Positions 57,401 through 61,864 of a stretch of 64,000 bases of DNA are shown piece by piece. The DNA comes from Escherichia coli (GTDB lineage Bacteria > Pseudomonadota > Gammaproteobacteria > Enterobacterales > Enterobacteriaceae): the NCBI RefSeq assembly GCF_016026235.1, contig NZ_CP065613.1, one strand, 5' to 3'. The notes under the pieces were generated by a model, which was given only the letters and a program-made list of their open reading frames with translations, was not told the origin of the DNA and ran no database searches. Within the stretch, counting starts at the first letter, position 1, and each line of letters begins with the position of its first letter. The position numbers and the translations under genes were made by a program.

Positions 57401-57513
57401 AACCAGTCTCATAAGGAAGTCCTTTTGAGACACTTTCAACGTAACGGTAGAATGCACCCTCAAGTAGTCTCAAAAGGTTGTTTTTGGATTATGAGACTAA
57501 CTTTTGAGACTTC
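57401..57513. promoter_or_regulatory. res-like / operator array: five copies of CTTWTGAGAC around the recombinase promoter
   Basis: Motif positions: 57406-57415 (-), 57422-57431 (+), 57467-57476 (-), 57488-57497 (+) and 57501-57510 (+). They are arranged as two inverted pairs plus one half-site. Confidence 0.6.
57425..57453 (+). promoter_or_regulatory. Sigma-70 promoter upstream of the recombinase gene
   Basis: TTGAGA (57425-57430), 17 nt spacer, TAGAAT (57448-57453). Confidence 0.6.
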
Positions 57514-57526
57514 TAAGGGGAACATT

Positions 57527-58078
57527 ATGGCGATACTTGGATATTGCAGGGTGAGTACAGATGACCAATCCATCACTAACCAGCAAATGCAAATTGAAGA
57601 GGCAGGGTACAACATTGCTAAATGGTTCACTGATGAAGCTGTCAGTGGTTCTGTCAAAGCTTCTTTAAGAAACGGTTTCAGTAGTTTGTTAGCTTATGCA
57701 CGAGAAGGTGACACCGTAGTTGTGGTAGCTGTAGACCGTCTTGGACGTGACACAATTGATGTGTTATCAACGGTTAAAGCGCTACAGGCTAAAGGTGTGA
57801 CAGTTATCAGCCTTAGAGAAGGGTTTGACTTATCAAGCGCTATGGGTGAAGCAATGTTAGGCATTATGTCAACGTTGGCACAGCTTGAAAGAAGCTTGAT
57901 AGCAGAGCGTAGAAAGGCTGGTATTGAACGTGCTAAAGCTGAAGGGGTACATATGGGAAGACCTGTAAAAGCTTCTTCAGAGGCTGTACAGATGCTTATT
58001 TCACAAGGTAAAACGAGGTTGCAGATTCAGGAAGAGCTAGGAATCTCTAGAGCAACTTATTACAGACTTGCTAAATAA
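57527..58078 (+). CDS. Small serine recombinase (resolvase/invertase family)
   Basis: 183 aa from ATG 57527 with SD AAGGGG. Starts MAILGYCRVSTDDQ, containing the catalytic Ser. Also has VDRLGRD and a C-terminal GRP...ISRATYYRL HTH. Confidence 0.88.
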   Translation: MAILGYCRVSTDDQSITNQQMQIEEAGYNIAKWFTDEAVSGSVKASLRNGFSSLLAYAREGDTVVVVAVDRLGRDTIDVLSTVKALQAKGVTVISLREGFDLSSAMGEAMLGIMSTLAQLERSLIAERRKAGIERAKAEGVHMGRPVKASSEAVQMLISQGKTRLQIQEELGISRATYYRLAK

Positions 58079-58422
58079 GTTATTAAACAGTTACATGGAT
58101 GTGACTGATATTTGGCTTTTTTGCAAAGGGGGTGCTATATCGAGAATGTACCGTACCAAGCAGCTACAGACATCTGTTAGATATTTTCGAAGATTTTTAG
58201 AAGGGGAATTTGAAGAGGGGCTACTACGATTTTATAAAAATTTTCAGATTCTGAAAAGTTACTGTACAGAATACATACAGACATCTTTAAAGTATCTATA
58301 AAGACTTTTAAGATAAAAGATAGATATCCCAGAAAGGATATCCGTTTAGAAAGCCTGTTAAGTATCTCTTAAAAGAGAGTAAACCTTGTCAATAGTGATT
58401 GCAATAAAAATTTTTATTTCTT

Positions 58423-59085
58423 ATGTCAATTGAGCATATTTTAATCGGGAAACATCATGGGGGTTCTGATTACTGGAGAACTCCATTTCTTATATTCCGC
58501 AATTTGCACCGTGAATTTATTTTCAGTCTGGATGGTGCTGCAACTGAGCATGACACGCTGTTACCACGATTCACCGATGATATTCACAATCAGTCATGGG
58601 ATGGTGAAAGGGTCTTCGTTAACCCACCATACAGCGACACTAAAACATTCCTCGTAAAAGCGTCTGAAGCAGATTTAGCGGTATTCCTGATACCGTACCG
58701 ACCCCAAACCATATACTGGCTTAAGCACATCTTCACAAACCCGCTTTGCCATGAAATCCGTATTCTTCATCGTGCAGTTAAATACCTTCCACCAGCAGGG
58801 CATAACAGGCTTACTATTAGGTCACCGTTTCCAAGTGCAGTCGTTGTTTTTAAAAAAGAACCACGTAAGCATGAAATTACACAGATGATTTGCTGTGGTG
58901 ACACATTGCTACCGTTAACCATCATTAACCGTGGTGGACTAAGAGGAAGACCCACCATTTACCCACCTGAGACGCTCGACAGCTTCATAAAACTATACAG
59001 GCAAGGCAAACCCATTAAGTGCATTGCAGATGCTCTCAGAATGCCCCTGAGCACGTCATACAGGATTGCTCAAAGGTTGAGCTAA
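58423..59085 (+). CDS. Phage-type DNA N6-adenine methyltransferase (Dam-like) fused to a C-terminal Hin/resolvase-type HTH
   Basis: 220 aa with DYWRTP...FSLDGAA...VFVNPPYS (NPPY catalytic motif). The C-terminus reads GRPTIYPPETLDSFIKLYRQGKPIKCIADALRMPLSTSYRIAQRL. Confidence 0.75.
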   Translation: MSIEHILIGKHHGGSDYWRTPFLIFRNLHREFIFSLDGAATEHDTLLPRFTDDIHNQSWDGERVFVNPPYSDTKTFLVKASEADLAVFLIPYRPQTIYWLKHIFTNPLCHEIRILHRAVKYLPPAGHNRLTIRSPFPSAVVVFKKEPRKHEITQMICCGDTLLPLTIINRGGLRGRPTIYPPETLDSFIKLYRQGKPIKCIADALRMPLSTSYRIAQRLS

Positions 59086-59189
59086 AATTCTCATAAATAT
59101 GGTCATTTACAAGACAGGTGTTTTAGATATTAAGAAGTATCCCTGTGAACAATAAATGACCAATCAGTAATTATTCTGTGAAATAATTG

Positions 59190-59218
59190 TTGCAATTTAT
59201 AATCACATCTGTTATAGT
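59190..59218 (+). promoter_or_regulatory. Candidate sigma-70 promoter upstream of the rep gene
   Basis: TTGCAA (59190-59195), 17 nt spacer, TATAGT (59213-59218). A ~240-nt leader precedes the ATG at 59466. Confidence 0.45.
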
Positions 59219-59465
59219 TTCTATGGGCTGATAAAAGAACTCAGAACATTAAGAGGTTACAACGTTGGGAGGCGTCAGAGTATTGACGGATTTTCACAGC
59301 CTCTTATTCATTCAAGGCTTTTCCTTTTGCTGTTAATGCTCGCGTAATCGCTCAGGCTTCTGAGTTCCTTTATCAGTCCATCTTCTAATTAATTCACTCC
59401 CTCTGGGGTTGGTCACTATACGTGGTCAGCCCTTTCTTTGTTTTATTTTTAAAAAGGAAAACGTA

Positions 59466-60401: not shown

Positions 60402-60691
60402 TGAAAACTTATAATGGCGAGAGAAAATACCGTGACTATTTACTCAGACGTTACAGCATTTCTCGTGAAGGTTACTTGATGAAAGATACTCACGGGGAAG
60501 TTTACCGGATTCGACCGAAGAAAGAAGGGAGGGATTATTATTTCGTCGATGGTGTGACAGATTTAAAGATTGACGCTTTGAGGTTTGCAGTGATGTATCA
60601 TTTTGATATCTGGGATTCAGTCCACCAGCTACGATTAAAAGACGGTGACCCCAATAACTTAAAGGCCACCAATATTATCACAAAACGTTAG
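60401..60691 (+). CDS. Small NUMOD4 / HNH_3-like (homing-endonuclease-like) protein, probably degenerate
   Basis: 96 aa with a TAATG overlap with the rep stop. Has YSISREGYLM (NUMOD4-like) and VHQLRLKDGDPNNLKATNI (HNH_3-like). The call rests on motifs only. Confidence 0.45.
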   Translation: MKTYNGERKYRDYLLRRYSISREGYLMKDTHGEVYRIRPKKEGRDYYFVDGVTDLKIDALRFAVMYHFDIWDSVHQLRLKDGDPNNLKATNIITKR

Positions 60692-60873
60692 TTTGTTTTA
60701 CCATCATCAATCGTAATTGTGATTTCATATTTGAAAAGCTTAATGCTGAAATTGAATCGTGTACTTTTGGCGATAATCATTTTTAAAAGCTGATACACCA
60801 GAAGCACCAGAAACACAAAGCAACCTAAGCTTGCGAATCTGTGAGATTCAGCAATTGTTTCAAGAAAGCCCAT
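60688..60873 (-). CDS. Small single-pass membrane protein (hypothetical)
   Basis: 61 aa with an ATG start and SD AAGGGG. TM segment LGCFVFLVLLVYQLLKMIIA. It has its own promoter, TTGTCA-17-TATTAT (60953-60925). Confidence 0.5.
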   Translation of the reverse strand: MGFLETIAESHRFASLGCFVFLVLLVYQLLKMIIAKSTRFNFSIKLFKYEITITIDDGKTN

Positions 60874-60924
60874 TAATTCCCCTTATTTATCAAAGGGAAT
60901 GACCTGTATCAGCCCCCTATAAAC

Positions 60925-60975
60925 ATAATATCATGTAAATGAGATGTTGACAATATGTTAAATAAATGTTAAGAT
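60925..60975. promoter_or_regulatory. Divergent promoter pair with overlapping -35 hexamers
   Basis: Plus strand: TTGACA (60947-60952), 17 nt, TGT-TAAGAT (60970-60975). Minus strand: TTGTCA (60953-60948), 17 nt, TATTAT (60930-60925). Confidence 0.55.
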
Positions 60976-61011
60976 TGTAGTATGAGCAAGAGATTTAAGG
61001 AGATTTTTGCA

Positions 61012-61302
61012 ATGACTCACACAGTTACGCGCCTTTTGCCAGAGGCATTTGAACGACTGGCAGCAATCAAAGCCAAATACCCTGATATGAAGCACACAGC
61101 GCTTGTTGGAGAGCTTTTAAAAGAGTCGGTAGCCCTGACCCCTTTCGATAACGTTAAGGGCGTTGCAGAGGGTTCTAAGGCCATCAGAATCACAACAGGC
61201 CAACTGGAACTACTCAAAGCACAGTCCGCAGTAGCAGGTTGCTCAATGATTCAGGTGTTAAGCGCGAAGGTTCATCAACTGGCGGATAGATTGGAGGTTT
61301 GA
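61012..61302 (+). CDS. Putative tandem ribbon-helix-helix regulator
   Basis: 96 aa from ATG 61012 with a strong SD AAGGAG. Two RHH-like segments (HTVTRLLPEAFERLAAIKAKY... and KAIRITTGQLELLKAQSAVAG...). The fold is inferred by eye only. Confidence 0.5.
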   Translation: MTHTVTRLLPEAFERLAAIKAKYPDMKHTALVGELLKESVALTPFDNVKGVAEGSKAIRITTGQLELLKAQSAVAGCSMIQVLSAKVHQLADRLEV

Positions 61303-61727
61303 TGCTATGTACATTTGATTATCATGCGTTTTATCGCCATAGAGGTCATCTTGTCCGTGAGAATAACGGAACATGGAAAGATTTAACTCGTAATGCTGAA
61401 CCCTTCACACACCAGCAATTAAAATCCCGCTTCTCCAGATGGAAGAATGCACCAGCAGATACTGGTGATTTTGAGATTACCCATACATTTGATTACGCAT
61501 CAGAAGATGACCTTCGCAATGCAATTAAGCTGATTGAAGACTTCAATACCTCAGAAGATGTGGATGGTGACAAATATAAATCCCGTGGTAACCGCTATAA
61601 CCGTGATGATATCACTCAGGCCATAAATGCTGGTCAATCTCAGCGATACATCACAGAAAAATATGGTATTTCACGGAGACAGTATTTCTACGTTAAATCA
61701 TTGATTAATAAGGACAATTCAAAATAA
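61302..61727 (+). CDS. Hypothetical protein with a C-terminal Hin/resolvase-type HTH
   Basis: 141 aa from ATG 61302, with a TGATG overlap with the upstream stop. The C-terminus reads DDITQAINAGQSQRYITEKYGISRRQYFYV. Confidence 0.55.
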   Translation: MLCTFDYHAFYRHRGHLVRENNGTWKDLTRNAEPFTHQQLKSRFSRWKNAPADTGDFEITHTFDYASEDDLRNAIKLIEDFNTSEDVDGDKYKSRGNRYNRDDITQAINAGQSQRYITEKYGISRRQYFYVKSLINKDNSK

Positions 61728-61864
61728 CCATCTAAGTAACGGTAGAATGCACTTTACAGGCAGAGTTGCACCTTAATTTGATAAATTACCTTACCAGCCA
61801 GTGCAACTCCCTCTGTAACCCGCATGGTTACTGGCCTCAGAATGGCTATTTTAAGAGGTCTGAG

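Follow-up and report, generated by a model that had tools for sequence, protein, structure and literature searches.

Does an exact 17-bp repeat that includes a promoter hexamer mark two transcription units that are regulated together? The sequence GTAACGGTAGAATGCAC has exactly two exact matches in the window, the whole 64-kb stretch of DNA analysed here. This confirms the duplication reported in the initial annotation, with both copies on the + strand.

57441 to 57457, + strand: copy 1 of the 17-mer, an exact match, covering about -19 to -3 of a putative resolvase promoter as its -10 region
61736 to 61752, + strand: copy 2 of the 17-mer, an exact match, a -10-like module with no usable -35

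Each copy consists of a TAGAAT hexamer (57448-57453 in copy 1, 61743-61748 in copy 2) preceded by 7 nt and followed by 4 nt, and both are intergenic and located upstream of genes. The preferred reading, with a probability of about 0.5, is that a phage-related, mosaic integrative element has two promoter modules whose -10 region is the 17-mer. The two are best read as σ70 -10 modules, of which copy 1 would be firm and copy 2 doubtful. The repeat is real, yet nothing was found to suggest that it is a special co-regulation signal.

Exact direct 17-mer repeats with copies at least 50 nt apart arise in 14% of dinucleotide-shuffled 64-kb windows and in 0.4% of dinucleotide-shuffled 7-kb islands. The repeat is therefore unremarkable for the window as a whole and unlikely to have occurred by chance inside the element. 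Only three TAGAAT hexamers are present on the + strand of the island, all of them intergenic and all upstream of genes. The search for further copies that had been suggested found no third copy elsewhere in the window at up to 3 mismatches, and none in the complete relatives of the island at up to 4 mismatches, except chance matches in coding sequence. An exact search of a genome set of 185,579 species gave 19 matches, all unrelated bar Escherichia albertii, and IMG/VR gave three, one of them unrelated and the other two in related elements that have copy 1 alone.

Both copies lie within a single island, most of which is in the window.

56950 to 64000, + strand: the left 7 kb of a low-GC integrative element of about 11.5 kb in mdtG, continuing past the end of the window

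The GC content drops from about 52% to about 38% at the island, and mdtG is truncated. The complete relatives of the island (L002, L004 and L040) carry a 506-aa serine recombinase and an O-like replication initiator, their only virion genes being a tape-measure gene and a Dit-like gene, the product of which has 74% amino acid identity to Felixounavirus. These relatives thus have the gene content of a phage satellite, with an integrase, a replication module and few virion genes in about 10–20 kb. On this content the island looks like an apparently undescribed satellite of Felix O1-like phages, with putative dependence upon a helper; no description of it was found in the literature. It is abundant, being present in about 8% of complete E. 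coli genomes, and virulent Felix O1-like phages are the source of its borrowed tail genes. The island, rather than the 17-mer repeat, is the more interesting object. The 17-mer in itself matters little, its practical value being as an entry to the regulatory layout of the island. If the island is a satellite, its promoters and operators would be a first step to learning how a helper is sensed.

The surroundings of copy 1 contain a recognisable promoter, a recombinase gene and an array of recombinase-type half-sites.

57425 to 57453, + strand: σ70-type promoter, TTGAGA-N17-TAGAAT, scoring 10/12 in the promoter scan
57527 to 58078, + strand: small serine recombinase of 183 aa, similar to the gamma-delta/Tn3 resolvases, with Pfam Resolvase (PF00239, 6e-42) and HTH_7 (PF02796) domains
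57406 to 57511, no strand: res-like array of five TGAGAC half-sites, from half-site clustering and the alignment of 12 relatives

The suggestion that copy 1 provides the -10 of the recombinase promoter is supported by the scan and by a strongly conserved -10 island. Both hexamers are close to the σ70 consensus (TTGACA and TATAAT), with the -35 (TTGAGA) at 57425-57430 and a 17-bp spacer before TAGAAT. The sequence ACGGTAGAATGCACC is invariant at copy 1 in nine distinct relatives, including a homologue on a Klebsiella plasmid (L043) that is 67% identical overall, in which these 15 nt are kept and the rest of the spacer has diverged. Scan and conservation together make copy 1 a convincing predicted σ70 promoter for the resolvase gene. 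The recombinase itself matches gamma-delta resolvase (PDB 2gm4) over its full length at 6e-31, and among the relatives found its cassette is on plasmids in two cases only, both from Klebsiella.

Between the genes of the island, TGAGAC half-sites are found at 57406-57511 and nowhere else, and they are kept in 12 relatives. A 12+2+12 palindrome, GTCTCATAAGGA-AG-TCCTTTTGAGAC at 57408-57433, overlaps the -35 of the copy 1 promoter and is a clear site I, while the other half-sites pair ambiguously. One half-site has been removed from the array of the window by a 17-bp deletion, all 12 aligned relatives having retained it. The -10 sits between the arms CCTTTTGAGAC and GTCTCAAAAGG, and the part of the array downstream of the promoter folds as a leader hairpin (dG -19.9, z -2.9). 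In the proposed arrangement the -35 would be inside a palindromic recombinase-type site and the -10 between the first two subsites of the array. Such interleaving of promoter hexamers and subsites makes it probable that the resolvase gene is repressed by its own product, like those of Tn3 and gamma-delta.

The presence of a resolvase gene next to copy 1 and the direct orientation of the two copies raise another explanation, that the copies are the crossover sites of this small serine recombinase, at which the intervening 4.3 kb is excised. This is extremely improbable. The 17-mer is without dyad symmetry, copy 2 has no TGAGAC half-sites and copy 2 is also found in elements without such a recombinase. 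A query of 5,426 E. coli genomes with the chimeric junction, requiring at least 80% coverage, found no place with the deletion product. The recombination-site reading was rejected on the lack of symmetry, of half-sites at copy 2 and of a deletion product.

Copy 2 is located between two genes and is followed by an inverted repeat.

61299 to 61727, + strand: protein of 142 aa whose C-terminal HTH is of the resolvase type (hhalign), encoded directly upstream of copy 2
61763 to 61809, + strand: inverted repeat GAGTTGCAC-N29-GTGCAACTC (arms at 61763-61771 and 61801-61809), a putative operator or leader hairpin
61889 to 62212, + strand: core gene of 107 aa, conserved, following copy 2; 450 of 5,426 E. 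coli genomes have it

The location given in the initial annotation, just past the stop of the HTH gene and about 110–135 nt before the next open reading frame, is correct, copy 2 beginning 9 nt after the TAA (61725-61727) and ending 112 nt short of an in-frame ATG at 61865, or 136 nt short of the one at 61889. The first arm of the 9-bp inverted repeat is indeed at 61763; the second starts at 61801, not at 61799. The geometry is parallel at the two copies, in that an inverted-repeat arm begins 10–11 nt past the 17-mer in each case. The 107-aa protein has 3,038 homologues, very few of them distant, and has no Pfam, PHROG, NCBIfam or PADLOC match to indicate its function. Its AF2 model (pLDDT 74) has a tandem strand-helix-helix arrangement, for which only weak matches were found in the PDB (E 0.14), none of them significant.

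The TAGAAT of copy 2 is close to the σ70 -10 consensus and is invariant in seven distinct relatives. The promoter scan makes no call at copy 2, there being no -35 at 16–18 bp; CAAAAT is present at 17 bp and TCAAAA at 18 bp, and the best candidate, TTCAAA, is only found at 19 bp. There is also no TG extended -10, since CGG rather than TGn precedes the hexamer. In E. albertii (L051) the conservation at copy 2 starts exactly at AACGGTAGAATGCAC, with an unrelated flank upstream, a boundary that fits a functional -10 module. Copy 2 would at best be a weak or factor-dependent internal promoter before the leader of the 107-aa gene.

A doubtful but possible alternative is that copy 2 is no promoter, the 107-aa gene being read through from further upstream and the match being a recombination relic or due to chance, with the 3' end of the 17-mer (ATGCAC) having no role other than to form the base of a leader RNA hairpin. 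The promoter scan identifies a strong promoter at 60947-60975 and there is no terminator between the 142-aa and 107-aa genes, therefore read-through from it would suffice. The lack of a -35 at copy 2 points the same way, as does the frequency of 17-mer repeats in shuffled 64-kb windows. The inverted repeat has an imperfect extension reaching 61747-61825, in which 61747-61771 pairs with 61801-61825, and the six bases at the 3' end of the 17-mer are able to pair into the base of this long leader hairpin. The arms GAGTGAGAC and GTCTCACTC of the class 3 relatives occupy the same register, three of the pairs being doubly compensated relative to the window, and no canonical promoter was found in the equivalent leaders of element classes 3 and 6. 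Against this, a repeat within the island is a 0.4% event, and the conserved block in E. albertii begins with AACGG, 11 nt ahead of the bases capable of pairing. The leader RNA fold at copy 2 is not more stable than shuffles (z -0.49), and a search of Rfam for known RNA families returned only sub-threshold noise. The first arm in class 3 begins immediately past the -10-like hexamer, an arrangement more easily reconciled with a DNA operator than with an RNA hairpin; this hexamer, GAGAAT, reads GATAAC in E. albertii.

The type of HTH and the type of inverted-repeat arm are strictly linked among the relatives, including those with recombinant proteins. The HTH of the 142-aa protein is similar to that of the resolvase (hhalign probability 51%, E 1.6e-4). 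The inverted repeat that begins 10 nt past copy 2 travels with the C-terminal HTH of the upstream 142-aa protein, which probably binds this downstream repeat as an operator.

The initial annotation took the exact repeat as a sign of two co-regulated units, with conserved flanks that could be recognised by an element-encoded factor or a promoter-proximal regulator. The evidence does not support such a coupling by a dedicated factor. Among the sampled relatives the two copies assort independently. Copy 2 is present without copy 1 in three sampled elements (L040, L041 and L042), and copy 1 without copy 2 in others (L007/L033, L039 and L045); no element protein was found to co-occur with both. Strains RM9088 (NZ_CP042298) and MRE162 (NZ_CP119404) carry the two copies together. 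Flank positions vary, with changes at positions 1, 2 and 7 of copy 2 (GAAACGG.., GAAACGA.. and ATAACGG..) and positions 1–3 differing at copy 1 in L043. The invariant core of both site families is ACG.TAGAATGCAC, that is, ACG[G/A]TAGAATGCAC, and the 17/17 identity in the window would be the state in one lineage of this conserved core of 13–14 nt. The missing -35 at copy 2 and the lack of a canonical promoter in the class 3 and 6 leaders also speak against two co-regulated promoters. In the preferred reading the 17-mer is not a signal coupling the two units.

It is unlikely that a core of 14–15 nt is the site for an HTH_7 protein of the element, or for a helper-phage or host regulator, that activates both units together, for example by a joint switch-on upon infection with a Felix O1-like phage. 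The hexamer flanks ACGG and GCAC are kept in two unrelated contexts and across genera, three HTH_7-like proteins are encoded by the element, and relatives have other repeated TAGAAT cassettes without a -35 ahead of the tape-measure and Dit genes. However, each element has two copies only, A can replace G7 in copy 2, and the independent assortment of the modules applies here as well. The core is absent from Felixounavirus Bas63, the likely helper, as are the 17-mer motif and a late-like cassette, and Felix O1 is reported to use the host polymerase, with σ70-like promoters only (PMC3185647). Mimicry of a helper-phage promoter was rejected on these two observations. Quite improbable is the more elaborate case in which ACGGTAGAATGCAC (14–15 bp) is a dedicated element read by a helper-phage-modified polymerase or an HTH_7 protein of the element, the resolvase and 107-aa genes are co-induced on infection, and the repeat is one of several paired -35-less TAGAAT cassettes in the induction circuit of the satellite.

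Under the preferred reading of two -10 modules, the shared core may be due to descent from one promoter chassis through recombination in a highly mosaic family, or to the same constraint at the level of RNA polymerase. Counted in favour of this reading are the 0.4% odds in the element, the copy 1 promoter, the resolvase identity, the half-site clustering, the conservation of ACGGTAGAATGCACC in L043 and of AACGGTAGAATGCAC in L051, the common core, the three intergenic TAGAAT hexamers, the parallel geometry, the linkage of HTH and arms, and the likeness of the 142-aa and resolvase HTHs. Counted against it are copy 2 lacking a -35, the absence of a terminator upstream, the lack of a canonical promoter in the leaders of classes 3 and 6, GATAAC in class 3 of E. 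albertii, and the pairing of the 17-mer 3' end into the leader hairpin; the linkage of HTH and operator could also merely reflect physical adjacency. What emerges is one well-supported resolvase promoter, putatively autoregulated, and one candidate internal promoter. The case shows that a short exact repeat need not be a special signal, since a conserved -10 module can produce one.

In Tn3 and gamma-delta the res site precedes the resolvase gene and contains promoters that resolvase represses. The comparison with the island, tested here for protein similarity alone, is close in the 183-aa resolvase with an HTH_7 domain, in the inverted and direct half-sites over about 105 bp immediately upstream of its gene, and in the interleaving of promoter hexamers with subsites. 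The island differs in its half-site, GTCTCAWAAGG, in a subsite number and spacing with no obvious match to the 28/34/25-bp sites I–III, and in that copy 2 is without such sites. The cassette also belongs to no transposon but is carried by a phage-related island as optional cargo.

T4-type phages reportedly have promoter/stem-loop cassettes (PeSLs), said to have been described by Arbiol et al. in 2010, and Bas63 has repeated promoter/inverted-repeat cassettes between its early genes. Like both of these, the island has short repeated promoter units, here predicted, with inverted repeats at the boundaries of mosaic modules. Unlike them, it has two copies only, the arms differ between these, and its copies have no sequence similarity to the Felix O1-like cassettes.

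Among satellites, the PLE and PICI differ from the island in that it carries tape-measure and Dit-like genes and that no capsid-remodelling or packaging gene was recognised in it. The island, a putative satellite, resembles them in its small size and integrated state, in encoding a replication initiator and a large serine recombinase, and in having few structural genes alongside genes derived from a virulent phage.

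The 17-mer GTAACGGTAGAATGCAC is present as an exact direct repeat on the plus strand, as described in the initial annotation. The features concerned are:

57406-57511: res-like array containing five TGAGAC half-sites
57441-57457 (+): copy 1 of the 17-mer, TAGAAT hexamer starting at 57448
57527-58078: gene for a 183-aa resolvase, served by copy 1
58968: the one further TGAGAC in the island, within the methyltransferase gene
60947-60975: strong promoter upstream of copy 2
61736-61752 (+): copy 2 of the 17-mer, TAGAAT hexamer starting at 61743
61801-61809: second arm of the inverted repeat 3' of copy 2

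Dinucleotide shuffling yields an exact direct 17-mer repeat with copies at least 50 nt apart in 14% of 64-kb windows, and in only 0.4% for the 7-kb island. The match extends ungapped to 20/22 between the copies and, in the related element L001, upstream to 23/26. Both site families share as invariant positions only ACG.TAGAATGCAC, therefore the 17/17 identity is one lineage's state of a shared core of 13-14 nt. The proposed search for further copies found no third match with up to 3 mismatches in the window and no third copy in the complete relatives. The copies are read here, with a probability of about 0.5, as a pair of -10 modules connected by descent or by common constraint.

Copy 1 is a predicted promoter. 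Its role as the -10 of the recombinase promoter is borne out by the promoter scan (TTGAGA-N17-TAGAAT, 10/12). The resolvase (Pfam Resolvase and HTH_7) is closest to the gamma-delta and Tn3 resolvases, over its full length (E 6e-31). Half-sites 1 and 2 make up a 12+2+12 palindrome, GTCTCATAAGGA-AG-TCCTTTTGAGAC, overlying the -35, and the remaining half-sites are 3' of the -10 and could fold into a leader hairpin (dG -19.9, z -2.9). The half-sites are kept across the 12 aligned relatives, in which only ACGGTAGAATGCACC is invariant in the spacer between subsites 1 and 2. In the homologue on a Klebsiella plasmid (67% identity overall) this spacer has diverged on both sides of ACGGTAGAATGCACC, with the first three bases of copy 1 being ACC versus GTA; in E. 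albertii copy 1 has GCAACGG. This can be read as an arrangement in the style of Tn3/gamma-delta, with a recombinase that would bind around, and repress, its own promoter.

The res-like region of the window also has a 17-bp deletion at 57478-57490 (TTATGAGACAGCTAAAC, one TGAGAC half-site). This half-site is missing from the window only, being present in all 11 relatives examined (including L001, L002, L007, L015, and L043), and its loss may cripple the site. An insert of about 75 bp with internal hairpins (TGATTCGG...CCGAATCA, ATGAAGATGCTTCAT) is at 57318-57395; L001 and L002 lack it. Near the left ends of other elements it turns up again, at times inverted or duplicated (L006:3416-3451, 5687-5722; L004:3359, 6054), and it may represent a small repeat of a mobile or att-associated kind.

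Copy 2 begins 9 nt past the stop codon of the 142-aa gene and may be a promoter for the 107-aa gene that follows. It lacks a -35 at 16-18 bp (candidate hexamers: CAAAAT at 17, TCAAAA at 18, and TTCAAA only at 19), has no TG extension, and is not called by the promoter scan. There is no terminator between the 60947-60975 promoter and copy 2, so read-through into the 107-aa gene is possible. At 60688-60975 there is also a 61-aa ORF on the minus strand, with a hydrophobic segment, behind face-to-face divergent promoters that both have a TG (TTGTCA-17-TATTAT, minus; TTGACA-17-TAAGAT, plus). The locus is possibly a small switch region, or a toxin-like gene, of the island.

The inverted repeat annotated 3' of copy 2 is real (GAGTTGCAC-N29-GTGCAACTC, starting 10 nt from it); the second arm, though, lies at 61801-61809 rather than 61799. 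The repeat extends imperfectly back to ATGC within the 17-mer, and the fold predicted for the leader does not exceed shuffles in stability (z -0.49). Three leader classes (W, 3, and 6) are found among the relatives. Class W is as in the window. Class 3 has TGTGAGAAT followed directly by GAGTGAGAC-N29-GTCTCACTC, its arms in a register identical to class W with three pairs altered on both sides. Class 6 is unrelated and located behind an HNH endonuclease gene. Variants of the class W 17-mer are GAAACGGTAGAATGCAC (L032, L034, and L042), GAAACGATAGAATGCAC (L040), and ATAACGGTAGAATGCAC (L051, from E. albertii). In L051 the part 5' of AACGG bears no relation to that in E. coli and all is conserved from AACGG on, the best evidence that the copy 2 module matters. 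Against it, there is no canonical promoter at the equivalent place in class 3 and class 6 leaders, and the class 3 hexamer in E. albertii is GATAAC. That copy 2 is non-functional as a promoter is somewhat unlikely.

The copies appear not to be coupled. Copy 2 is present and the resolvase cassette absent in L040, L041, and L042, while copy 1 is found with a class 6 leader in L007/L033 and L039 and with a class 3 leader in L045 and L053. Among the 56 class W genomes listed, about half had a single place for the query with both halves, a count that is indicative only. With each copy occurring alone and no third copy, co-regulation through the shared flanks is not borne out; what stands of the initial interpretation is the copy 1 promoter and, possibly, that of copy 2. 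The 17-mer lacks dyad symmetry and there are no TGAGAC sites at copy 2, therefore it is not a recombinase site. Nor did a chimeric junction query reveal, in 5,426 genomes, any product of a deletion between the copies. A recombination site is highly improbable.

The C-terminal HTH of the 142-aa protein is of two types, GISRRQ(Y/L)(F/Y)Y(V/I)K and GLSRSQYYK, strictly linked to arm type among the relatives. This linkage persists in recombinant proteins with the window-type N-terminal 60 residues (L052 and L053). The exchanged DNA block, approximately 61601-61806, takes in the HTH together with the 17-mer region and the two arms, and the linkage could equally be mere adjacency. The HTH matches that of the resolvase with an hhalign probability of 51% (E 1.6e-4). 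Since an inverted-repeat arm begins 10-11 nt 3' of the 17-mer at both copies, one promoter chassis may carry different operators for two resolvase-type HTH proteins. No family assignment was found for the 107-aa protein, which has few distant relatives; its predicted model is a tandem strand-helix-helix with weak matches to F-plasmid relaxosome chains.

Other paired cassettes are found in the family. A unit of about 63 bp, with conserved arms CTACGTGAAAT ... TTTACGTA(N3)CACGCTTAA, is upstream of the tape-measure and Dit genes alike (window 63685-63747; L002:11997-12059; L003:9995-10031, 13618-13654; L004:9962-10027, 12097-12162). Its centre is variable, with a -35-less TAGAAT in some lineages, and it could serve as a promoter-operator unit, late or inducible. 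Class 6 elements too have a repeat of 33-100 nt 5' of two operons. A cassette of 100-130 nt (GAGACGCYCTCAAYCGCATTCTRAC ... TTTARCTCGTTACAGAGCGATTGARGAGGTCTG), whose opposite strand has TAGAATGC, recurs there (L007 in reverse complement, 3400-3510 and 5066-5195, and likewise L033 and L039). Pairing of regulatory cassettes is thus habitual in this element family, which keeps alive, at low probability, the reading of the 17-mer as the site of a dedicated factor.

Two proteins of the element, tape-measure and Dit-like, have homologues in virulent myoviruses of the Felix O1-like kind. The Dit-like one shares 74% amino acid identity with its phage homologue, with 261 phage records covering at least 80% of it, and the start of the tape-measure gene matches phage at the DNA level too. 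Felixounavirus Bas63 contains neither the 17-mer nor its core, and also lacks the late-like cassette of the element. For the Felix O1 genome, host-polymerase, sigma-70-like promoters are reported, and no phage-specific promoter (PMC3185647). There is therefore no evidence that the 17-mer mimics a helper promoter. The Bas63 early region (L029/L030 64458-70243) has small genes each behind one of two repeated promoter/stem-loop cassettes (e.g. TTTACA-GGGGCTTA-N13-TAAGCCCC), similar to the PeSL cassettes of T4-type phages.

The 17-mer is an ordinary kind of feature; the element carrying it is under-studied, with no published description found in a literature search. On the side of the E. coli chromosome are opgG, opgH, yceK, msyB, and truncated mdtG, with GC dropping from about 52% to about 38% from approximately 56950. 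The window has the left 7 kb (56950-64000) of this integrative element, complete relatives of which are about 11.5 kb (L002:2800-14600; L004:2940-14650; L040:2200-14250). At least four integration sites are used: mdtG, the yciI/tonB gap, the ymdF to wrbA or cbpA gap, and yecE. The gene order is a small serine recombinase (optional), a Dam-type methyltransferase with an HTH_7 tail, an O-like replication initiator, small genes with no assigned function, the 142-aa HTH protein, the conserved 107-aa protein, a 236-aa protein, the tape-measure protein, the Dit-like baseplate protein, and lastly a large serine recombinase of about 506 aa. In draft assemblies of the window lineage (L047 and L048) the contigs all end about 800 bp into the tape-measure gene, which suggests an IS insertion, as in L003, L006, and L041. 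The 107-aa core gene region is found in 450 of 5,426 complete E. coli genomes. The tape-measure and Dit-like genes are the only virion genes, and the element resembles a lytic-phage satellite with a PLE-like logic.
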